Source: Candidatus Acidiferrales bacterium (GTDB lineage Bacteria; Verrucomicrobiota; Verrucomicrobiia; Limisphaerales; UBA11358). Taken from it: DNA of 64,000 nt. The position numbers were made by a program, and so were the translations under genes. A model generated the notes under the pieces. The model worked only from the letters and a program-made list of their open reading frames with translations. It was not told the DNA's origin and searched no databases. Positions 3,166 through 41,952 of this stretch are shown piece by piece. The stretch's first letter is position 1. Every line of letters begins with the position of its first letter. Where the stretch lies: positions 28,654-92,653 of the forward strand of contig DATHQS010000357.1 of the NCBI GenBank assembly GCA_035482455.1, in the 5' to 3' direction.

Positions 3166-4605
3166 ATGACCACAAAAACCAACCAACCAAAAAAGTCACA
3201 AAATACCGCATCGCAACCGGAAGAATACGATTTGCTGGTATTGGGCAGTGGAGCAGCCGGGAAGCTTCTTTCCTGGACCCTGGCTCCCCAAGGAATGAAG
3301 ACGGCCGTCATTGAGCGAAAATATGTCGGCGGTGCCTGCCCTAATATCGCCTGCCTGCCCAGCAAAAATATCATCCACAGCGCCAAGGTCGCCTCCCTGT
3401 TCTTCCGCAGCCGGGAATTCGGCATCAGCAAAGATAATTGCCATATCAATATGGAGGCGGTACGCCAACGTAAACGCGACATGGTTCAGGGCCTCATCGA
3501 AGCGCATCTGGCCAATTACAAGGCCAGTGGGGCGGAACTGATCATGGGCTCCGGCCGTTTCGTCGGACCCAAGACCATTGAGGTTACCGGAGCCGGTGGG
3601 ACGAAGCGCCTCCTGCGCGGAAAGCACATCGTCATCAATACTGGAACTCATGCCACGATTGAACCCCTGCCGGGTCTGGCTGAGGCCAAACCCATGAGCC
3701 ATATCGAGGCGCTCGAATTGGATCACATTCCGGAACATCTGCTCGTCATCGGCGGCGGCTACGTCGGTCTTGAACTGGCGCAGGCCATGCGCCGGTTTGG
3801 CAGCCGCGTGACCGTGATCGAACGTAACTCCCGCCTCATTCACCGCGAGGATCAGGATGTCTCAGAAGCCGTGCAGCAACTGTTCAAGGATGAGGGTATT
3901 GATGTATTGACCAATGCCCGAATCGCTCGGGTCGAAGGCCAGTCCGGCCAACGGGTGAAACTGCATGTGAACCGGGATGGGGCGGATATCGTCCTTGAAG
4001 GTTCACACATCCTGGTTGCCACGGGTCGCACCCCGAATACGAAAGATATCGGCCTGGAGTTGGCGGGCGTGGAATTGACCGGTCGCGGCCATGTGAAAGT
4101 GAACGGGCGATTGGAAACCACCGCCCCGGGTGTCTGGGCGGCGGGAGACTGTGCCGGCAGCCCCCATTTCACCCACATCTCTGAAAATGACTTTCACATT
4201 GTCTGCGACAATATCCTTGGTGGCCAGCGCGTGACGACCGGGCGGCAGGTGCCATTTTGCATGTTCACGGATCCCGAGTTTGCCCGGATTGGTTTGAGCG
4301 AAACGGAGGCCAAGGAACGCGGCATTGCCTATCGCCTGGCAAAAGTCCCCATGGCCGCCGTGTTTCGGGCCAAAACATTGTCCGAGACCCGCGGCTTCTT
4401 GAAGGTTCTCGTTGATGCCAAGAGCGACCATGTATTGGGTTTGACCGCGTTCGGCTGGGATGCCGGAGAAATCATGGCGGTCGTGCAGGTCGCGATGATT
4501 GCCGGCCTGCCTTATACCGCCCTTCGTGACGCCATTTTTGCGCATCCCACCATGGCCGAAGGGCTGATACCATTGCTGTCAAATGTTCCCCCCACAGCCA
4601 AATAG
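3166..4605 (+). CDS. FAD-dependent pyridine nucleotide-disulfide oxidoreductase (Lpd/MerA-like class I flavoprotein reductase)
   Basis: YDLLVLGSGAAGK (FAD GxGxxG), redox-active GGACPNIACLPSK, a second dinucleotide fold at VIGGGYVGLE, and a C-terminal dimerisation HP motif (AHPTMAEG). There is no C-terminal Cys pair, so I do not call it MerA. Confidence 0.85.
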   Translation: MTTKTNQPKKSQNTASQPEEYDLLVLGSGAAGKLLSWTLAPQGMKTAVIERKYVGGACPNIACLPSKNIIHSAKVASLFFRSREFGISKDNCHINMEAVRQRKRDMVQGLIEAHLANYKASGAELIMGSGRFVGPKTIEVTGAGGTKRLLRGKHIVINTGTHATIEPLPGLAEAKPMSHIEALELDHIPEHLLVIGGGYVGLELAQAMRRFGSRVTVIERNSRLIHREDQDVSEAVQQLFKDEGIDVLTNARIARVEGQSGQRVKLHVNRDGADIVLEGSHILVATGRTPNTKDIGLELAGVELTGRGHVKVNGRLETTAPGVWAAGDCAGSPHFTHISENDFHIVCDNILGGQRVTTGRQVPFCMFTDPEFARIGLSETEAKERGIAYRLAKVPMAAVFRAKTLSETRGFLKVLVDAKSDHVLGLTAFGWDAGEIMAVVQVAMIAGLPYTALRDAIFAHPTMAEGLIPLLSNVPPTAK

Positions 4606-14711: not shown

Positions 14712-14785
14712 GCGGGTGTGGTTCAATGGTAGAATGTGGCCTTCCCAAGGCTGAGACGAGGGTTCGATTCCCTTCACCCGCTCCA
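14712..14785 (+). tRNA. tRNA-Gly (anticodon CCC)
   Basis: Cloverleaf read by eye: acceptor GCGGGTG/CACCCGC, D arm GTTC..GAAT, anticodon stem TGGCC/GGCTG with loop TTCCCAA, T arm GAGGG TTCGATT CCCTT, and an encoded CCA. Confidence 0.9.
14755..14785 (+). repeat. attL: 31-bp core (3' end of tRNA-Gly), identical to 45328..45358
   Basis: gacgagggttcgattcccttcacccgctcca occurs exactly twice in the window, in direct orientation. Confidence 0.9.
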
Positions 14786-15262: not shown

Positions 15263-15640
15263 CTACTGCTTGGTAAAATTGACTGCAACGGCGGTAACGT
15301 GAGTTTTTAGCGAGGCCGCGAACCGCCGGTCAACCGCCTTCACAAAATTTAAGTCACATTTCTGAATCTTCCGCGCGACGGCTTGGAGGCCACTGCCCAA
15401 CAACGTGACTTCTGCCGCGGCAAAACAGATCACCAGCTTTTCGGGTGGTGCATCGGCATTCTTTTCCAGTGCCGGATTGGGAATTGTCTCCGCATACAGC
15501 AATTGCGCGTAGGGCAGAAGATAGCTGTGTGCGTCGTCGGCATACACGTTGAGCGATGCCACGTTCGGATCAATGCCGTAACAGGGATTGTCACGCGTGC
15601 TAGACACCGATGCTTCGTCCGGGTTGGGGTTTGTGTTCAT
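15263..15640 (-). CDS. hypothetical protein (downstream of the relaxase, overlaps its 3' end by 41 nt)
   Basis: 125-aa ORF with no recognisable motif. It is co-oriented with the relaxase. Confidence 0.4.
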   Translation of the reverse strand: MNTNPNPDEASVSSTRDNPCYGIDPNVASLNVYADDAHSYLLPYAQLLYAETIPNPALEKNADAPPEKLVICFAAAEVTLLGSGLQAVARKIQKCDLNFVKAVDRRFAASLKTHVTAVAVNFTKQ

Positions 15641-18323
15641 AGGATATTTTACGTGTTTGTTCGATGCGTTTGCGGGGCGAATGGGATTGCGTTATGCGCT
15701 GGCGGAATTGTTTCAGGAAACGATGGCCGAGTTCCATGACCCGCAAGATGAATTTCTGTCGGCTGACATGCGGGACCACTTCCACGGCTGCCAGTCGCTC
15801 GCTGGAATGGGTGATATGCGAACGCAGCCGCTCGGTATCATCGGTAAAAACCTGGCAGCGTTCGCGACCGCGCGAGATGCTGACGTAAAATTGCTGCTGA
15901 TGGACGGCGGCCAGCGAACGGGACGACGCCACAACCAAAACCTCATCCACCGTCTTGCCCTGGGCGGCGTGCGACGTGACGGCGTAGCCATGCGTGAATG
16001 TGCGGTAATTTTGAGGAATCACGCGGCCATCGGCCAACACCACGGAATCGCCCTGAATCGCCCGCACCTCGACAAGTTCGCCATTGATAAACCGCTTGCC
16101 GACCGTGTTGGCTTGCAGCAACAGCTTGTCACCAGCGGCGACTTTCAATTTCCGTTTCTCCCCCACATCAAACGAGGCGAAGCCTCGACCCAATGGAAGA
16201 AAACTTTCAGAGCCATCGTCACGCTGAACTTTGATCGAATCATTTTCGACTGCGACCACCGCGACCGTTTCATCTTTGGCGAAACCAGCCTTCCGCTGGT
16301 GAAACCGTATCGCCATGCCGGGATGAAATTGCCGCGCATCTTGTTTTTGGGCTTCCGTCCACGATAACGAATCGAAAACCTCAAATTCTTTTTCTTCACC
16401 GGCCAGACGGCCGGACGTTTTCATTGCTGCCCGCACTTTCTCCGTTACCGCCTCGATTTCATTCCAAGTCGGTGCGACCAGCAATGCAGATCGGTTTTGT
16501 TCCAACGCCTTTAGGTATGACTGCGCGACCTTGTCATGCAGATTATCGTTGGAAGATTCAGTGATCGCTCCGATGCGTTCCAGTTGGACGAACGCCTCCA
16601 GCGTCCGTTTTTGTGCCGCCAGTTCGACCGCCTTGCGATACTCAGCTTTGCGCTGGCGACGGATGCGGGTCAATTGGCCGGATTGAAAATTGGAATGTTG
16701 CTCCAGAATCCGCAACGCATCACCACGCACCACCGATGCGTGCTGGCCGGTGTCGCCCGAAAGCACCACACGGGCGTCACGAGCCAGGTCAAACAGCCGC
16801 TTCATATCGTCAATGCCGACCGCCCCGGCTTCGTCCAGCACCACCAACCACCGTTCGTCCAGTTTGGGTTTCGTCAGCAGCAAACTTTGCAGTGTCTTCG
16901 CCTCGAATCCTTCCTTGCGAAGCACATCCGTCGCCGCTGCCGTCGGCGCGCAAAATAGCGGTTCGATTTTCACTTCGGCGCAGGCGGCAACCAACTCGCG
17001 TAACGCCGTGGTCTTGCCCGTGCCTGCCAGACCTCGCAGGCCGGTGATCCGGTCATGCGTGCGGAGGACATGATAAATGGCCCGTTGTTGATCCTCGCCC
17101 AGCCAGTCGGCGGGCCGGTAGCTGGGGTGAATCGGCGCAACGGTATCGCAGGCCGCATTGACCGTCTGAATCAAATCCAGTTCCGTTGCCAAAATCTGTG
17201 GCGTGGATAATCCACGCTCGGTTTTGACCAGTTGATCCGAATACTTTGCCGCTTCTTTCAACGCCGGCAAATCCAATTCACCCGGATGCTGCGCCAGCGC
17301 CACGCCCAACAGTTCATGCTCCGGCACGACCGACTTGCGCTCGAAGACATGGGCGACGGCATAATTCAGGGCTTGGTTTTCCGGTTCAAACCGGCGGACT
17401 TGCCGGACAGGTTGAACCGCCGTGGAGAGTTTTTGCAACGCCAGCAATTCATCGGGCTGTAGTTGTGCCAACTGCAGCTCGCGAACCTGAGCAGTCGAAA
17501 TGCCTTTGATCTTTTTCGCCCGGCTCTGATGCACCGCCAGGGCGATGGCATTATTCGACAATTTGCGCCCCAGTTTTTGTTCCAGTTCCCGAACCACCGC
17601 GTCACGTTGCTGGGAGCGTTTGGAAAACCGTTTTAATATCGCATCACTCACGCCCTCGATTTCAAAGCCGTGTTTCGCGGGACGAATGCGATAGCCGATC
17701 TGTTGGACGCGCTTCGCCAATTCATTGCGATAAACTGCCGTGCCGTAACGAATCGCGTCATACATTCCGCCCGCCTGTAAAGCCTTCCAGCGCTTTTCCG
17801 TTTCATCGAAGGTGGCGTTGAACACGGTGAGATGCGTGTGCAACAGCGGGTCGAGCGCCCGGCTGCTCGTGTGCGTGAACGCGGCGGCGACCAGATTGCT
17901 GGTGTTGCGGTCACGTTGATTGCCCTGCTTGCGAACTCTGGTCGCGGCGAAGGTTTCAAGTTCGCGGAACGCTATGCGCGTCGCTTCCTCATGTGCTGAC
18001 ACGAGCCGGTCGTCATCCATCGTCACCGCCAGCACCGAAACCGATTTTGGCGCGGAACAGGTGAAATCGTAAAACACGCGCCGTTGATTGGTTTTTTCCT
18101 GACGCAGTGTCAGGCGGTTATCGTCATTCGGATTTTTGTTTTCACACAGCGCGTGAAATTGATCGCGGGTTACTGCCTTGTTTAGGCCAAGGCGTTCCGC
18201 GCCCGCGCCGATCCACTGGCCGGGCCGGATTTCACCGGCGGCGTAGTAGTCGTTCTGCGCCAGATGCTCGTCGAAGTAGCTCTCGGCTCTGGCCAGCTTT
18301 TTTTGCGCGACGGCTGTGAACAT
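15600..18323 (-). CDS. MobF-family conjugative relaxase (TrwC/TraI-like) fused to a RecD-like SF1 helicase
   Basis: N-terminal AESYFDEHLAQNDYYAAG, CSAPKSVSVLA and a histidine triad (LLHTHLTVFNATF). P-loop LRGLAGTGKTTAL in the middle, and a C-terminal helicase block (YAVTSHAAQGKTVDEVLVV). Confidence 0.9.
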   Translation of the reverse strand: MFTAVAQKKLARAESYFDEHLAQNDYYAAGEIRPGQWIGAGAERLGLNKAVTRDQFHALCENKNPNDDNRLTLRQEKTNQRRVFYDFTCSAPKSVSVLAVTMDDDRLVSAHEEATRIAFRELETFAATRVRKQGNQRDRNTSNLVAAAFTHTSSRALDPLLHTHLTVFNATFDETEKRWKALQAGGMYDAIRYGTAVYRNELAKRVQQIGYRIRPAKHGFEIEGVSDAILKRFSKRSQQRDAVVRELEQKLGRKLSNNAIALAVHQSRAKKIKGISTAQVRELQLAQLQPDELLALQKLSTAVQPVRQVRRFEPENQALNYAVAHVFERKSVVPEHELLGVALAQHPGELDLPALKEAAKYSDQLVKTERGLSTPQILATELDLIQTVNAACDTVAPIHPSYRPADWLGEDQQRAIYHVLRTHDRITGLRGLAGTGKTTALRELVAACAEVKIEPLFCAPTAAATDVLRKEGFEAKTLQSLLLTKPKLDERWLVVLDEAGAVGIDDMKRLFDLARDARVVLSGDTGQHASVVRGDALRILEQHSNFQSGQLTRIRRQRKAEYRKAVELAAQKRTLEAFVQLERIGAITESSNDNLHDKVAQSYLKALEQNRSALLVAPTWNEIEAVTEKVRAAMKTSGRLAGEEKEFEVFDSLSWTEAQKQDARQFHPGMAIRFHQRKAGFAKDETVAVVAVENDSIKVQRDDGSESFLPLGRGFASFDVGEKRKLKVAAGDKLLLQANTVGKRFINGELVEVRAIQGDSVVLADGRVIPQNYRTFTHGYAVTSHAAQGKTVDEVLVVASSRSLAAVHQQQFYVSISRGRERCQVFTDDTERLRSHITHSSERLAAVEVVPHVSRQKFILRVMELGHRFLKQFRQRITQSHSPRKRIEQTRKISYEHKPQPGRSIGV

Positions 18324-18659
18324 AAAACGCGATGTTAGCGGTTTTTAAAATGGCTTCATGCCTCGTTGGCACAATCGTTAATTTTTCTACCGGTTTTCAT
18401 TTCCTATTGGCCATTTTGCCTGAACTTTCTCCCGTTGAGTTGTATGTGATACACTATATGCACTTGGCCGATGTTTTTTTCATTCGGCAACCAGTTTGGC
18501 TCAGAAAAAGCCCGCTTTTGTGTAATCTTTACATAAAATGAAAAATCTCTTTTTGGCTGAAAAAACGCGTATGTCCGTTGGTTTTATTGAGGATTATCAC
18601 TTTCCATCCGGCTGAACCTGAAATTTTTTGCAGTTTTCGCATCGAAATTATGCTTGCCT

Positions 18660-18821
18660 GGCGCTTTGACTGGCCGGGTTTCCTCCGGGCACTCGGAAAC
18701 CGGCCAGACAAATCGCCGGCAATGCGAACCTAGACGGTCGAGCACTCGACGGGCGTTTTGAAAATCCCGCGACTCCACACCGTTCCGTTCGCTCCGATTT
18801 TCAAAACGCCCGTCCAGTGCT
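18660..18821. other. structured element copy A (three stem-loops); paralogue of 19228..19415
   Basis: P1 is ctggccgggtttcc/ggaaaccggccag (18670-18707). P3 is a perfect 16-bp stem cgggcgttttgaaaat/attttcaaaacgcccg (18750-18812) with a 31-nt loop. The conserved single-stranded blocks ggcgctttga, acaaatcgccg, gaaacctag and cagtgct are shared with copy B. Confidence 0.6.
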
Positions 18822-18876
18822 GTCCCAAACTTGATTCCGCACCCGGATTATCATATCTATTTCTTGAGTGAAAAAG

Positions 18877-19062
18877 ATGTCCTTCAATCAAATAAAACGG
18901 CAGGAGGCGCAAAGCCGCATGGCCGCAATTCGCAGGGCACGCCGCAGTCCGGCGGCAGCCGCAGCAGAACAAAGACGGGCATCACTCGTCGGCAATGGAG
19001 CCAAATGGCGCATCACCAATCTCAATGAAGCCGTCCGCGCGATGGCCAAACATTGGGGATGA
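18877..19062 (+). CDS. small basic Arg/Ala-rich protein (possible relaxosome/DNA-binding accessory)
   Basis: 61 aa: MSFNQIKRQEAQSRMAAIRRARRSPAAAAAEQRRASLVGNGAKWRITNLNEAVRAMAKHWG. It lies between the two structured copies and is preceded by gagtgaaaaag. Coding status is uncertain. Confidence 0.3.
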   Translation: MSFNQIKRQEAQSRMAAIRRARRSPAAAAAEQRRASLVGNGAKWRITNLNEAVRAMAKHWG

Positions 19063-19227
19063 CTTGGAAAGGCCGCAGATCATCACCTGATTTTGACGGT
19101 CAAATAGCCTGTTCGCTTGGCAGGAGAAAACCATTCGATGGCGTAGCGTAGCATGGGGCGCGGCCTGGCATCATGATGCTGCTGGAGAAAACCCTCCAGC
19201 ACAGACTGATTCCGTTTGGAATGAATC

Positions 19228-19415
19228 GGCGCTTTGACTGGCCGGCTTGCTTCCAGGTATTCAGCAACCGACCAGACAAATCGCCGTGATGGAAACCTAG
19301 GCGGTCACGCACTCACCGGTCGTTCTAAAACCGCGCTCAACTCCGCCGTCGTCCGTTCATGCCACTTCCGACCTGCTCCGTTTCGCTGCCGGTTTCAGAA
19401 CGCCCGGTCAGTGCT
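19228..19415. other. structured element copy B (diverged paralogue of 18660..18821)
   Basis: Same block order as copy A, with P1 ctggccggcttgc/gcaaccgaccag and P3 accggtcgttctaaaaccg/cggtttcagaacgcccggt. The stems differ in sequence from copy A but remain complementary. Confidence 0.6.
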
Positions 19416-19554
19416 TGGCTATTTGCTCATGGACGCATCAATTTGAGGTGTTCAGTCGAACGGAATCTTTGGCGGCTTTCTGGAATTGGAAAGCCGGTCA
19501 TTTTGGTTAGACACCATCCCCTTATCAAAAAATAAGGGCGGAAGACGAGCAACG

Positions 19555-20400
19555 GCCGCGCAATTTCCGGGCAATTTCCGCGCAACGTCCGACGCAACAT
19601 CCGGTGAATCATCCGCGCAATTACCGAGCAACTGCCGAGACGTGTCCGGGCAGTTGGCGGGAAACGTCTCACCAAACTCCGGTGAATGTTCGCGCCAAAG
19701 TTCGCACCAAAGTTGGCACGATGGTTCGCAAATGACTTGGTAATTACCGCCGCAGTCCACGCCGCAGTCCGCGCTGCATCCAGCGTGGTATCCGGCGCAG
19801 TATCCGCTGAATCATCCGGGCAATTGCCGGGTAACTTCCGAGCAGTGTCCGAGCAGTTGGCGGGAAACGTCTCACACAACGCCGGTGAATGTCCGCACCA
19901 TGGTTGCCGCAACGGCTCGCAGGCGACTTGGCAATTGCCATAGCAGTCCGCGCCGTAGATCACGCAGCAGACAGGTTGGCATCCACTGAGCAGTCCGCGC
20001 AGTGTCCGGCTTGGCGTCCGGGCAACATCCGATGAATCATCCAGAGAATTTCCGGGCAATTTCCGGGCAGCGTCTGGGCGATTTTTGCATGAAACGCGCA
20101 CCGGCCTGGAACTTTCCAGAGATTTTTCCAGTTTTTCCAATGGCAACGGCTTTTCCGTGGCAAGACACATTCCACGTTCGCGACGAGTCCACAAACATGT
20201 CTGCGTCCAGTCCGTGACCGAGACCCCATTTTGTCCGTGTCCGCACATAATCCGCGTTAACGATTTCTCCGCGACCTGACGGTGTCCAGTCCTCAAATTG
20301 ACCGCGAACACGGTTTACCCATGTCCAGCCTGGACCGCGCACAGTCCGAATTTTTGGTCAGTCCATGGCCTCATCCAGTCCGCGACCGCGACCGCAGTTT
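19555..20400. repeat. ~850 bp array of degenerate 11-bp phased repeats (consensus about gCAnTnTCCGn / cAGTCCG), organised in ~2.5 higher-order ~200-bp units
   Basis: One run reads caatttccggg caatttccgcg caacgtccgac gcaacatccgg tgaatcatccg cgcaattaccg agcaactgccg agacgtgtccg ggcagttggcg. A second run reads cgcagtccacg ccgcagtccgc gctgcatccag cgtggtatccg gcgcagtatcc gctgaatcatc cgggcaattgc. Long-range repeat 19601-19790 vs 19795-19960 vs 20025-20100. ORFs are open in several frames on both strands. Confidence 0.7.
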
Positions 20401-38648: not shown

Positions 38649-39524
38649 TCACAACGATTCCGCCATGGCGATGGTTTCAAACTCCGAACAGATTTCCGGA
38701 TGGTTGGCGTTCAGATACCGGACGACCTTCCCGTTCTTGAGCAGGTTTTTGACATAGGTTTGCGCCGTTTGCAGGGTGAACATGTTTTCCGTGTAGGTAT
38801 CCGTGACGGCTTTTAATTCCCGTTCCAGCGATTCCATTTCACTTTCCATCCGGGCGATGTCCTCCGCCGACATGCCGGCTTTTCGCTTCGGCTCATCCGG
38901 GTTCACTAACTGATGCTTGGGCGTGCCCAGGACCATGGCCTCGGCGTAGCCGACAACGTAGTTGTTCATCGCGACCATCATTTCCGCCATTTCAATCTGC
39001 CGGTTTCCATTCACGCTCTTGAACAGCCTCAGGGCTTTCGGACAGATGTTTTTGTCTTTCAATAATTCGGCCGCGTCCGGATGAATCCCTTTGAGCAGGT
39101 TGATGGAGGCTTGCACCACCCGCAGCGGCATGTTCAAAACCACGGCCAGCCGCTCCGGGCTGACGCCGTTGTTCACAGCTTTGACGATCATCTTGTGCTC
39201 CTGGATCGGCGGCAACCGGCTAATGCGGGCGTTGTAGGTGTAGCACTCGTCATCCGTGGCGATGATGCAGTCGGCTTCGGTTTTGCCCAAATCTTTCAGG
39301 GCAAAATAACGGAGGTGCCCGTTTTTCAGCATATACTTTCCCGGCGCATCTTTTTGCGGATAGACCACCAACGGTTCCACCAGACCCATGTCTGGAATGG
39401 AGCCAAGAATCGCCTTGAACCGATAGGTCTCCTTATCCACCTCTTTAACTAGGCGCATTGGTAGGATGTCATCCAGCGGCAACTGGATTTTCCGCAGTTC
39501 AAAGGCAATTTTCGGTTCACTCAT
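38649..39524 (-). CDS. ParB/Srx N-terminal-domain protein (ParB-like 1)
   Basis: GLVEPLVVYPQKDAPGKYMLKNGHLRYFALKDLG (ParB box with GxxR). The start overlaps the upstream gene's stop (ATGA at 39521-39524). Confidence 0.75.
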   Translation of the reverse strand: MSEPKIAFELRKIQLPLDDILPMRLVKEVDKETYRFKAILGSIPDMGLVEPLVVYPQKDAPGKYMLKNGHLRYFALKDLGKTEADCIIATDDECYTYNARISRLPPIQEHKMIVKAVNNGVSPERLAVVLNMPLRVVQASINLLKGIHPDAAELLKDKNICPKALRLFKSVNGNRQIEMAEMMVAMNNYVVGYAEAMVLGTPKHQLVNPDEPKRKAGMSAEDIARMESEMESLERELKAVTDTYTENMFTLQTAQTYVKNLLKNGKVVRYLNANHPEICSEFETIAMAESL

Positions 39525-40408
39525 GCTGTTTGTTTGATTTGGGGTGAAAGTTTGACCGACAAATATTTTGGCATCGTCGCCAGGCCTTCGGCTCGTAACA
39601 GCGTGCCGAAATTTTCATCCGCCAGCAGCTTGTTGAAGCCCGTCACAATAAAACCCAGCTTGGCATCACACACCTTCGCCTTTTTGATCATCAACTTCTG
39701 TCGCTGGCTCTCCTTGCGGTACGAATTGACCATGCTTTCCATGCTGGTCTTGGGTTTGGCGTCGGATGACTTGCCGCCACGCTGCTTGCCAATCAGTCGC
39801 CGGCTCTCGATTAGCCCTTTGACGTATTTCAGGGATTTGTAGTCGAGCTGCTTTTCCTCGTAGGCTTTCAGCAGTTCGCGCTGGGTCTCCAGCGTGTCGG
39901 TCTTGGCAATGTCCACCGCGATCCACAGGGGAATCTTTCCGGTGACGGCGGCCTCCAGCAACCGCTCCTCGCCCGCGTTGCTCAGGCTCGAATAGGCCCG
40001 GACCAGGCTGTCGCTCACGTCCAACTTTTCGCTGATTTCTTTGATTGTATTGCCCAAAGCCTGCAACCGTTCGATTTCCCGGATCAAATCCATTGGCTTT
40101 GGATAACGCCGGGCGATGTTTTCCACGAGGCTGCGGACCAGCAGTTCCTGCTTTGTAATTTCCGAAACAATGGCCGGTATTTCTTTATGCCCGAGCGCCC
40201 GGAAGGCTTCCATCCGTCCCTGTCCGCAAATTAAATCATATCCGGCCACTTCATGCTCGCTCGCGTGGCGGCGGCTGACTTGAATCGGCATTTTCAGGCC
40301 AACATTTCTGATGCTCTTGATGATGATCTCAAACTTTTTCGGGTCTCGATGACGTGGATTGACCACGCGGATTTTCTCAATGCGTATCAATTCGATTACC
40401 TCACTCAT
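39521..40408 (-). CDS. ParB/Srx N-terminal-domain protein (ParB-like 2) with HTH
   Basis: IRVVNPRHRDPKKFEIIIKSIRNVGLKMPIQV...YDLICGQGRMEAFRALGHKEIPAIV. The preferred ATG at 40408 overlaps the recombinase stop (ATGA at 40405-40408). Confidence 0.75.
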   Translation of the reverse strand: MSEVIELIRIEKIRVVNPRHRDPKKFEIIIKSIRNVGLKMPIQVSRRHASEHEVAGYDLICGQGRMEAFRALGHKEIPAIVSEITKQELLVRSLVENIARRYPKPMDLIREIERLQALGNTIKEISEKLDVSDSLVRAYSSLSNAGEERLLEAAVTGKIPLWIAVDIAKTDTLETQRELLKAYEEKQLDYKSLKYVKGLIESRRLIGKQRGGKSSDAKPKTSMESMVNSYRKESQRQKLMIKKAKVCDAKLGFIVTGFNKLLADENFGTLLRAEGLATMPKYLSVKLSPQIKQTA

Positions 40409-41952
40409 GCGAGTTCCTCCAGCTTCACGCGTTCCGCCATGCCGAAGAAACAATCCAATGTGTCAAACCGGTAGGTATCCAGACAAATGCCGTTGGCCTC
40501 CGCCACCCGGAGGTTTTCCCAGGTCATATCCAGCCCCGGCAGCACATAGTAATCGCGGATGCCCTCATTCGCGGCATCCATCCGCACGGCAATGGTGACG
40601 TCGGGTCGGGCGCTGGCATCCAGCCGGATAAGCCAGCGCGACGAACCAGTGCCCGTTTCCGTATGCCGGCACAGCACGATCGACACGCGCATTTCACCGT
40701 TTAGCTCCAGCAATTCAGTTGCGTCGTTCCAGACAGCTTGCGCTCCCAGGTCAGAAATCTTCTGGACCACTTCGGCCACCAACTCCGGGTGACGTTTCCG
40801 CAGCCGCCGGTTTTCTTCGATGAAGCTGAAATCAATCCCGGGGTCGTAGCCGATAAGTTTGTAAGCGCTGACGAGGGTTCCGAAGCGATGCCGAAACGCC
40901 GTGCTCGATGGCAGGCCTTCCGCTTCGTCTATCAGGATGCCCGAGATGCGTCCGTGTTTTAATAACACGGCACGCAGTTTTTCCAGCATCTCTTCATCGG
41001 TCAGCTTCTGGCTTCTTGCCAGGATGATTTCATGTGCCCGCCAGAACAGGTCCGGCTCCACGACGCCCTCAAAAGCGCCATCCGCCCGGATCCATTTGTC
41101 CGGCGGGTTGTTCACGTGCTTTTTCTTCAACTTGCACGAGGTCCGGTGATACACGTTGTTGCCGATGTATTTCTCATTGGTCAGGATTTGATGCACCGTT
41201 CCCCGGTTCCATTCCCGCCCAAAATCAGTCTTCACGCCCTGCCCATTGAGGATGGTTGCGATCTCGGATTCCATCTTCCCTTCATTGATAAATGACTCGA
41301 AAATCCACCGGACGATGATTGTTTCTTCTTCCGGCCCACGCACCAACACCACGCGGTCGGTCTGGATGCTTTTTTGTTCACCCATCTTGAGCGTCGCCTT
41401 CCGTTCTCCGCTCTGGTCGATCAGCATCCGGCGCAAGCCGAACCCCGCCGTCCCGCCTTGCTTGTAACCGAGTTGGATCAACCGGCACGCGCCTTGAAAC
41501 ACCTTTGAGGACAGCTCACGGCTGTATTCGCCCGCCATGGCCCGCTTCACGCCCTTGACGATGGTGGACACCGGACTGCCGTCATTCTCAAATTGCTCCG
41601 CACAGTAGTGGACCGAAACGCCCGCCCGGCGGCAGATGTATTCGTAATAAGCGCTTTCATCGGCATCCTGAAACCTACCCCACCGGCTCACGTCATAGAC
41701 GAGGATGTTGGCAAACTCCGCTCGTCCTTCCTGGACATCTCGCAGTATTTGCGCCAGCGAGTCGCGACCTTGTATGTTTAGCCCGCTTTTGCCCTCGTCC
41801 GAATATTCCTTCACAATATTCAACTCGCGCCGCTTGGCGTATTCGCGGATCACGTCCATCTGGTTGCTGGTTGAATACTGCTGATGCTCCGTGGACATGC
41901 GCACATACACGGCGGTGCAGTTCGTCCATCGCTCTTGATTGGCCCGGCTCAT
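40405..41952 (-). CDS. large serine recombinase (resolvase/invertase N-domain plus recombinase domain)
   Basis: AVYVRMSTEHQQYSTSNQ (catalytic Ser block), ILVYDVSRWGRF, GVKRAMAGEYSRELSSKV, then a large C-terminal extension. Confidence 0.9.
   Translation of the reverse strand: MSRANQERWTNCTAVYVRMSTEHQQYSTSNQMDVIREYAKRRELNIVKEYSDEGKSGLNIQGRDSLAQILRDVQEGRAEFANILVYDVSRWGRFQDADESAYYEYICRRAGVSVHYCAEQFENDGSPVSTIVKGVKRAMAGEYSRELSSKVFQGACRLIQLGYKQGGTAGFGLRRMLIDQSGERKATLKMGEQKSIQTDRVVLVRGPEEETIIVRWIFESFINEGKMESEIATILNGQGVKTDFGREWNRGTVHQILTNEKYIGNNVYHRTSCKLKKKHVNNPPDKWIRADGAFEGVVEPDLFWRAHEIILARSQKLTDEEMLEKLRAVLLKHGRISGILIDEAEGLPSSTAFRHRFGTLVSAYKLIGYDPGIDFSFIEENRRLRKRHPELVAEVVQKISDLGAQAVWNDATELLELNGEMRVSIVLCRHTETGTGSSRWLIRLDASARPDVTIAVRMDAANEGIRDYYVLPGLDMTWENLRVAEANGICLDTYRFDTLDCFFGMAERVKLEELA

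Follow-up and report, generated by a model that had tools for sequence, protein, structure and literature searches.

The window analysed here, a stretch of 64,000 nucleotides from a verrucomicrobial genome (assembly GCA_035482455.1, contig DATHQS010000357.1, positions 28,654 to 92,653), carries beside the relaxase gene of a mobilisable island two diverged copies of a structured element. These copies belong to an undescribed and widespread family, which is supported by covariation and is tied to mobilisable islands with a relaxase of the MOBF class. As to function, we tentatively read the elements, with a probability of roughly 0.4, as folded single-stranded DNA (ssDNA) signals of the class formed by single-strand initiation sites (ssi), single-strand origins (sso) and Frpo, lying a short way downstream of the nick on the strand that is transferred. 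The two copies had been noticed in an earlier reading of the DNA letters made without database searches (the sequence-only reading), and the finding is more substantial than that reading knew.

Anatomy of the two copies

Copy A (18655-18821) and copy B (19227-19417), the only copies in the window, are diverged direct repeats. They align in three collinear blocks, namely 18660-18718 with 19228-19286 (85% identity), 18722-18763 with 19289-19330 (76%) and 18788-18821 with 19382-19415 (79%), so that pairwise alignment and repeat blocks bear out the earlier description of short conserved stretches in one and the same order. The pairings P1 and P3 of the sequence-only reading were also found to be correct by folding and by inspection of inverted repeats: the P1 stems form in both copies, and the 16-bp stem cgggcgttttgaaaat/attttcaaaacgcccg of copy A lies inside a longer pair of arms (18741-18766 with 18796-18821, Table 1).

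The overall anatomy, described earlier as three stems, had to be revised. Each copy consists of two long hairpins, H1 (~60 nt) and H2 (~80 nt in copy A and ~105 nt in copy B), joined by a conserved linker, (G)AACCTAG(A/G)CGG, which can form a tiny helix of 3 bp. The tract ACAAATCGCC, supposed to be single-stranded, is in fact paired with the 5' block GGCGCTTTGA in the folds and in the inverted repeats, and this pairing lengthens P1 into the H1 stem of ~23 bp, interrupted by recurrent single mismatches. Because the tract is paired, the argument that a hairpin followed by a single-stranded tract marks a nic site within the copies fails.

Folded as DNA, the + strand of copy A reaches -57.5 kcal/mol (z -9.5) and that of copy B -42.1 kcal/mol (z -3.9); for the minus strand of copy B the values are -53.9 kcal/mol and z -7.5. 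The energies are well under those of dinucleotide shuffles, with z ranging from -3.2 to -9.5 according to copy, strand and parameters.

A widespread family with a conserved structure

A homologue search in related genomes, envisaged by the sequence-only reading as a check, was performed by scanning one genome per GTDB species for the pattern TTTGACTGG-N15-45-CCAGACAAATCGCC. The scan matched 75 loci, from which 79 full copies were extracted, and a profile search found further diverged copies that do not contain the exact pattern. Nearly all the loci are in metagenome-assembled genomes of Verrucomicrobiota (Limisphaerales / subdivision 3) from peat, bog and soil, and several genomes have multiple loci.

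A few loci (L035, L004, L044, L022, L038, L041, L056 and L043) are found in bins labelled Acidobacteriota, Bifidobacteriaceae or Cyclobacteriaceae. These could be due to mis-binning or to transfer between phyla.

The copies fall into two size classes. Type A (~162 nt, like copy A) is always the first in its array and has a conserved left flank, while type B (~188 nt, like copy B) has a strongly conserved H2 interior. In a GC-rich lineage (L023, L050 and L074), nearly everything has been replaced except the basal boxes of H1 and the base of H2, and the pairing is kept.

The structure is under selection in this family, as the sequence-only reading had concluded from covariation between the two copies. 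An RNAalifold consensus of the 79 copies contains 31 pairs, 17 of them with double-sided changes. When 36 diverse copies were examined in the minus sense, 24 of 47 pairs showed changes on both sides, compared with 13.9 +/- 1.9 in shuffled data (the observed number was reached in 0 of 500 shuffles) and 6-11 in slid controls; the proportion of pairing cells was 91.9%, against 84.2% for shuffles and 29-48% for slid partners. Alongside this covariation, exact conservation of the basal 23 nt extends over about 50 or more genomes at the species level.

Two versions of the H1 apex exist, each complementary within itself, CTTGCT...AGCAA and CTTTCC...GGAAA. Either is freely joined to any linker or H2 type, and copies within one array can differ; locus L054, with copies at 1098-1284, 2382-2543 and 3874-4035, is an example. 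The free reassortment of the two versions points to frequent exchange or conversion between copies.

These data also bear on the suggestion that the copies are decayed fragments of a coding gene, or a functionless, chance duplication of palindrome-rich DNA, which can hardly be right. It is true that a short open reading frame (ORF), MNRRFDWPACFQVFSNRPDKSP, can be read through H1 of copy B. However, the two H1 variants alter most of its codons and yet keep the pairing, neither the frame nor the start codon is conserved, and the exact basal conservation together with the covariation contradicts decay. The coding reading of the H1 peptide was therefore rejected.

The element had no match in Rfam, PLSDB or IMG/VR. 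Rfam, searched with gathering thresholds over the whole window, matched only a tRNA, and in E-value mode on both strands of 18300-19700 gave nothing better than E = 0.9. A blastn search (word size 11) with 18300-19500 against the 72,556 plasmids of PLSDB gave no match, nor did the pattern scan of IMG/VR.

The strand that folds

The sequence-only reading had described the fold on the + strand; the asymmetry between G-U and A-C pairs and the z-scores make the minus strand more likely. In the paired columns of all copies, the minus strand has 274 G-U against 49 A-C, while the + strand has 42 G-U against 76 A-C. Because the copies are not independent, the 36 diverse copies are the fairer test: here the minus strand has 74 G-U and 46 A-C cells, with G-U ahead in 18 pairs and behind in 9. 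Single positions switch between wobble and Watson-Crick pairing on the minus strand: pair 21:103 occurs as G-U (38 copies), G-C (24) or U-A (10), and pair 171:193 as U-G (74), G-C (3) or C-G (1).

Raw fold energy favours the minus strand in 89 of 89 copies, by a mean of 18.7 kcal/mol. This gap is largely an effect of base composition, because the + strand is C-rich, and z-scores from composition-matched shuffles were used in place of raw energies. With RNA parameters, they amount to -6.53 for the minus and -5.29 for the plus strand, the minus strand being better in 14 of 18 copies. The minus strand is thus moderately supported as the folded one. It should be noted that G·T is tolerated better than any other mismatch, in DNA no less than in RNA, and therefore the wobble asymmetry cannot separate a DNA from an RNA structure.

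Relaxase, cargo arrays and a candidate origin of transfer

The gene adjoining the elements does encode a genuine TrwC/MOBF relaxase, as had been supposed. Besides the Pfam match (Table 1), its N-terminal domain matches the structure of R388 TrwC in PDB at 4e-36 and TraI of F at 5e-35. A relaxase homologue is present at the equivalent relative position for 36 of the 79 copies; in the related loci it is always on the opposite strand and starts 135-680 nt from the first copy. After the intergenic region come one to three direct copies of the element, and the genes between copies, all on the + strand, are variable. Their stop codons lie 6-60 nt ahead of the next copy and their start codons 47-184 nt past the previous one. 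The slot filled in the window by the 64-amino-acid (aa) ORF holds elsewhere, for example, a 269-aa protein, a PIN toxin, a JetD_C-like protein, or a 1304-aa SF1 helicase with an MTES_1575 nuclease domain.

Given that there are up to three copies per element-bearing array, each flanking cargo, and that their conserved tract is inside the H1 stem, the copies do not fit a unique origin of transfer (oriT). A better candidate appears to lie beyond copy B, at 19506-19537. There, the minus strand shows an inverted repeat followed by GGGGATGGTGTC(T/A). In the window, 19537->19506 of this strand reads hairpin-GGATGGTGTCT/AA (the slash marking the putative nick), the core of the motif being hairpin-GGGGATGGTGTCT/A, and the longer stretch 19540->19495 is the hairpin plus GGGGATGGTGTCTAACC. 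On the + strand the motif takes the form GACACCATCCCC, which is invariant and has a single exact match in the whole window. It is found within 1.5 kb to the right of 44 of the 79 copies; in ~37 of these 44 it lies 79-95 nt beyond the copy, and the others, at larger distances, are mostly not the last of their array. The adjacent stem has 5-7 bp, mostly with 4-nt loops, and occurs in at least six fully compensated forms.

The sequence at 19506-19537 thus has the anatomy of a MOBF oriT, namely an inverted repeat 5' of a conserved tract. R388 TrwC requires a hairpin whose loop has 4 nt, followed by 9 single-stranded nt that end in ...TGTCT, and then a purine (PMC4176350); the tract in the window contains TGTCT/A, which is the R388 core (PMC4176350). 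The terminator-like hairpin at 19473-19506 would halt + sense transcription just before this motif. The nic-like tract also includes GGTGT, as at the nic site of F.

The motif is followed by an array of phased repeats (Table 1), with units such as CCGGGCAATTT and CCGCGCAACGT. Related loci keep this array and, after it, a conserved gene for a 273-aa protein with a Walker-A-like motif and no Pfam hit. The array resembles the 11-bp-phased stbDR repeats that adjoin oriT in R388, or else a partition centromere. A 294-aa ORF at 19427-20311 (minus strand) is probably spurious, because it is built of the 11-nt repeat array.

Between the start of the relaxase gene and the first copy lie a near-palindrome at 18440-18454, TTGTAT-GTG-ATACAC (most other loci have GTGTAT-GTG-ATACAC), an inverted repeat interrupted by a T-rich loop at 18464-18490, and TTTTGTG...CATAAAA at 18516-18538. 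These blocks are probably the promoter/operator of the relaxase gene or sites for accessory proteins. The near-palindrome was considered as a nic site and rejected, being more operator-like and followed by a tract that has no MOBF-like core; it is kept only as an alternative position for oriT.

A possible role in DNA transfer

A nick at 19506-19537 would mean that the minus strand is transferred, with copy B, cargo and copy A at its leading end, and that the incoming strand is the template of the + sense cargo. Under the reading we favour, the MOBF relaxase would nick the minus strand at the hairpin-GGGGATGGTGTCT motif, and this strand would enter the recipient 5' end first, so that copy B, ~90 nt away from the nick, leads, followed by the cargo gene and copy A. 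The hairpins would then snap back, offering duplex landing pads on SSB-coated DNA, and these may recruit the host RNA polymerase or primase. The RNA made on the single strand would prime synthesis of the complementary strand, as at sso and ssi. The same RNA may also give the cargo early expression, as Frpo does, because the cargo is templated by the transferred strand and lies directly downstream of each copy. At copy B, RNA synthesis toward the 5' end would run into the conserved terminator shortly ahead of the nick, and second-strand synthesis could cross oriT only after recircularisation, according to an ICEBs1-type logic; at copies further upstream, the same process would lead to transcription of the neighbouring cargo or to its conversion to duplex.

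The closest precedents are the sso1 of ICEBs1 and the rolling-circle origins ssoA, ssoT and ssoU, which likewise are intergenic, measure ~200 nt and contain several stem-loops (PMC4595007). In addition, sso1 is strand- and orientation-specific, has a redundant second copy, and adjoins the relaxase gene just downstream of oriT on the transferred strand, between nicK and ydcS (PMC4595007); this placement was argued to delay formation of the att duplex until recircularisation (PMC4595007). The elements described here, structured and intergenic, ~160-190 nt long, within the ~150-300 nt expected of an sso, with several stem-loops and near a candidate nick site, match sso1 in size, multi-stem form, position by oriT and the relaxase gene, and redundancy. 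They differ in having no sequence similarity to sso, no CS-6 and no promoter-like hexamers, in belonging to another phylum and to a MOBF rather than a MOBT system, and in bracketing cargo in arrays.

The Frpo/ssi elements of F-like and IncI leading regions are comparable: long imperfect hairpins recur where the leading region begins, each gene or operon templated by the transferred strand has a copy ahead of it, and the cargo is of defence, anti-defence or toxin type (PMC11541004). Long imperfect hairpins are formed by a single strand here as well (DNA folds with z -3.9 to -9.5, and covariation). For leading-region genes that rely on ssDNA promoters, the incoming strand is described as the template (PMC11541004), and all the between-copy cargo genes of the present arrays share one orientation, for which the minus strand would be the template. 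The elements, however, have two hairpins instead of one, no -35/-10 hexamers in the stem and no homology to plasmids, and their position in the leading region, on the transferred strand, holds only if the minus strand is nicked at 19506-19537.

Several points weigh against this reading. The nick was assigned from resemblance to known sites, and cleavage there on the minus strand would bring the relaxase gene in early, as in ICEBs1; in F and R388, relaxase genes enter last. The strand preference is moderate after control for composition, and with DNA parameters the z-scores are -7.19 for the minus and -6.83 for the plus strand, the minus strand being better in only 10 of 18 copies. As for promoters, no sigma-70 -35/-10 pair is conserved in 54 type-B copies with 60 nt on either side, on either strand, and none was seen by eye in the hairpin-arm geometry of an ssDNA promoter; a canonical promoter role was accordingly rejected, there being no conserved sigma-70 pair inside or beside the elements. 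None of the 79 copies carries the CS-6 motif of ssoA, TAGCGT, on either strand; this excludes ssoA only, as other sso types do without CS-6. No sequence similarity was found in PLSDB, which does hold F-like plasmids. Moreover, simple priming leaves the regular bracketing of cargo unexplained; a promoter-like role or one in recombination would account for this habit better.

A transfer-related single-strand signal had already been proposed by the sequence-only reading, and this general idea survives as the best reading of the elements, although its mechanism, based on a hairpin and a single-stranded tract on the + strand, does not.

Other explanations

The elements could instead act as RNA. The rival proposed by the sequence-only reading, a structured noncoding RNA, stands, albeit as an unlikely one: in the minus sense it would be a small RNA (sRNA) for mobilisation or the leader of the relaxase transcript, and would bind the relaxosome or a regulatory protein through the basal boxes. 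The strong covariation, the excess of G-U over A-C and the better minus-strand z-score with RNA parameters are as expected of an RNA, and minus-sense promoter-like sites are present just upstream of each copy in the window (19528->19500 and 18874->18847). There is also a precedent in the sgm-sRNA of SGI1, which is encoded between a relaxase-like gene and the oriT of a mobilisable island and is essential for mobilisation (PMC9299015), although its sequence differs and the SGI1 'relaxase' is a tyrosine recombinase. Against an RNA gene, however, no conserved promoter or terminator that would define it was found on the folded strand. The promoter-like sites of the window are not conserved (the -35 sits in the covarying hairpin, and the A-run is the U-tract of the + strand terminator), the right flank of type A is variable cargo and carries no conserved promoter, there is no minus-sense terminator after H1, neither strand matches an Rfam family, and antisense cargo cuts off from the relaxase all copies except the first. 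A 5' leader of divergent minus-strand genes was rejected, since no consistent minus-strand ORF of at least 60 aa starts in the left flanks; those left flanks that resemble reverse-complemented gene starts are 3' ends of + strand cargo genes. The suggestion that such RNAs feed the defence genes found no support, as related loci carry other cargo in place of these genes, whereas the elements stay with the relaxase and with the oriT-like and repeat module. On the opposite strand, the elements would be + sense structures of the cargo mRNA, type A being a 5' leader and type B a stabiliser of the 3' untranslated region (3'-UTR) or a 3'-UTR-derived sRNA ending at the terminator. This we regard as quite improbable. 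Copies and flanking cargo genes are co-oriented, the spacing of cargo stop codons ahead of the next copy is short, an intrinsic terminator is conserved on the + strand ~55 nt after the last copy, and the apical loops are C-rich on this strand, but the + strand excess of A-C over G-U is the reverse of what an RNA should show, the distance to the start codons is variable, and no + strand promoter was found upstream of copy A. In addition, for one cargo gene a TTGACA of its own lies downstream of type A and ahead of the start codon, so that type A need not be part of its mRNA.

A different possibility, which takes in the duplicated oriT of the sequence-only reading and seems to us doubtful, is that the copies are pseudo-oriT sites for the relaxase, which would act at the nic-like sequence GGCGATTTGTCT/GG in the 5' arm of H1 on the minus strand and, by strand transfer, capture the cargo between copies. 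The sequence GGCGATTTGTCT is identical to positions 14-25 of the R388 nic region at 9 of 12 positions, and is followed by a purine (PMC4176350); if one gap is allowed, it matches the candidate nic GGGGATGGTGTCT as well. Two mismatches of the H1 stem fall at nic-tract positions, including the equivalent of T23, a base swung out in relaxase complexes (PMC4176350). The arrays of one to three direct copies with variable cargo in a single orientation, the folded strand being antisense to it, would agree with such a function, as would the reassortment of H1 apical variants with linker and H2 types, which suggests exchange at or near the conserved box. TrwC is reported to catalyse recombination between oriT sites as well as integration (PMC3264647). 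Nevertheless, the tract is buried in the ~23-bp stem, whereas MOBF relaxases need it free on the 3' side of a hairpin, and we estimate at ~0.1-0.2 the chance of an accidental 9/12 match after the several alignments tried. If directly repeated copies were all functional nic sites, transfer would be aborted or the cargo lost by deletion. Moreover, this reading does not account for the long H2 hairpin, the mosaics might equally stem from homologous recombination between copies, and cargo type follows element subtype, with no direct sign of shuffling. The comparison with the R388 oriT, composed of the IR2 hairpin and nic, is similarly divided. The window relaxase is a TrwC homologue, 19506-19537 has the inverted repeat, the tract and the TGTCT/A core, H1 carries a related sequence, and 11-nt phased repeats follow the candidate nic; in contrast to R388, the elements are multi-copy with a paired nic-like tract, the polarity relative to the relaxase gene would be opposite, and the single-stranded tract, of 9-11 nt, is only partially identical.

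Rather improbable is the related proposal that the elements are recombination sites of a cassette system run by an HUH relaxase, with a masked nic-like sequence and with cargo inserted or swapped at the head of the leading region; either an incoming relaxase-DNA adduct or a resident relaxase would do the strand transfer at the copies. Such a system would be an analogue of the integron built on the chemistry of conjugation. Integron attC sites also form arrays of imperfect hairpins with conserved unpaired bases, keep their structure above their sequence, and accompany variable cassettes in one orientation. The folded strand of attC is antisense to the cassettes. The elements, however, are larger and have two hairpins, and their basal boxes show no relation to R''/R' (as judged by reading the sequence, GTTRRRY is not retained). 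True attC sites were rejected: ACTCAAC/GTTCAGT of many copies is R''/R'-like, but the window copies have ACTCGAC/GTCCAGT, and there is no IntI. Indeed, neither IntI nor another tyrosine recombinase was found among the neighbours, the sole recombinase being a large serine recombinase 21 kb away.

The island and its features

The elements belong to tRNA-inserted, relaxase-carrying mobilisable islands of Verrucomicrobiota. In the window, the island is bounded by a tRNA gene at 14712-14782 and has at its other side the large serine recombinase gene (40405-41952), preceded by two ParB/RepB-like genes at 38649-40453. No genes of a type IV secretion system were recognised in it, and it therefore looks like an integrative mobilisable element. 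The region from 20.9 to 38.6 kb holds defence-type genes, encoding an SDH-type protease, an SNF2/PLD helicase, an Eco57I-like methylase with DUF6577, AbiEii, and UvrD-like, GmrSD, Mrr-like, dCTP-deaminase-like and HNH proteins. In agreement with the sequence-only reading, no reverse transcriptase, TnpA/TnpB, IS110 recombinase or other insertion-sequence gene, and no Cas gene, was found by Pfam in the flanking ORFs or in the conserved neighbour clusters. The gene neighbours expected of a retron msr/msd or of IS200/IS605 or IS110 guide RNAs are thus missing. The features of the element region are collected in Table 1.

Table 1. Position of the relaxase gene, the two element copies and the neighbouring features in the window.
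Feature	Position	Strand	Description	Basis
TrwC/MOBF relaxase-helicase gene	15600..18323	-	907 aa	Pfam TrwC 2.6e-77 and AAA_30
Conserved intergenic region, relaxase start to first copy	18324..18654	.	Rich in inverted repeats and conserved blocks	Alignment of 14 loci
Small hairpin GCATCGAAATTATGC	18639..18653	.	Within the conserved left flank of first-in-array copies	Sequence reading, flank conservation
Copy A, hairpin H1	18655..18721	-	~23-bp stem with recurrent single mismatches; basal boxes GGCGCTTTGACTGG / CCAGACAAATCGCC conserved	Folds, inverted repeat, family covariation
Copy A, linker	18722..18740	-	Conserved tract (G)AACCTAGACGG, ~3-bp helix	Alignments, family helix
Copy A, hairpin H2 (short, type A form)	18741..18821	-	26-nt arms, 96% complementary; apical loop C-rich on + strand	Inverted repeat, folds, covariation
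Small cargo ORF	18868..19062	+	64 aa; fills the slot between copies A and B, with unrelated genes there in other loci	No Pfam hit
Copy B, hairpin H1	19227..19286	-	Basal boxes as in copy A; apical stem-loop of the alternative variant v1	Folds, variant table
Copy B, linker GAAACCTAGGCGGTC	19287..19308	-		Alignment, folds
Copy B, hairpin H2 (long, type B form)	19309..19414	-	~105 nt; interior of ~60 nt strongly conserved in sequence	Folds, family alignment
Terminator-like hairpin, then T-run	19473..19506	+	~55 nt beyond the last copy	Conserved in most related loci
Candidate oriT nic region	19506..19537	-	Hairpin 19537-19520, then invariant GGGGATGGTGTC at 19521-19510, then TAAC	Conservation, covarying stem
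Phased repeat array, 11-12-nt units	19546..20100, weaker to ~20400	.	~550 nt; includes a 203-nt higher-order repeat	Tandem Repeats Finder (TRF)

Significance

To the best of our knowledge, nearly all that is known about the ssDNA signals of conjugation (Frpo, ssi and sso) comes from Proteobacteria and Firmicutes. If the favoured reading is true, the elements would be the first such signal described for Verrucomicrobiota, with a clean structure supported by covariation, and with the unusual habit of bracketing defence- or toxin-type cargo immediately after the nick site. Should the copies turn out to be substrates of the relaxase, they would represent a new route of gene-cassette assembly. The family is a candidate for a new Rfam-style model and a possible marker of these islands in metagenomes. 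It also provides a testable handle on the mobilisable islands of soil and peat bacteria, as regards their establishment in a new host, the strand transferred and the turnover of the cargo slots.

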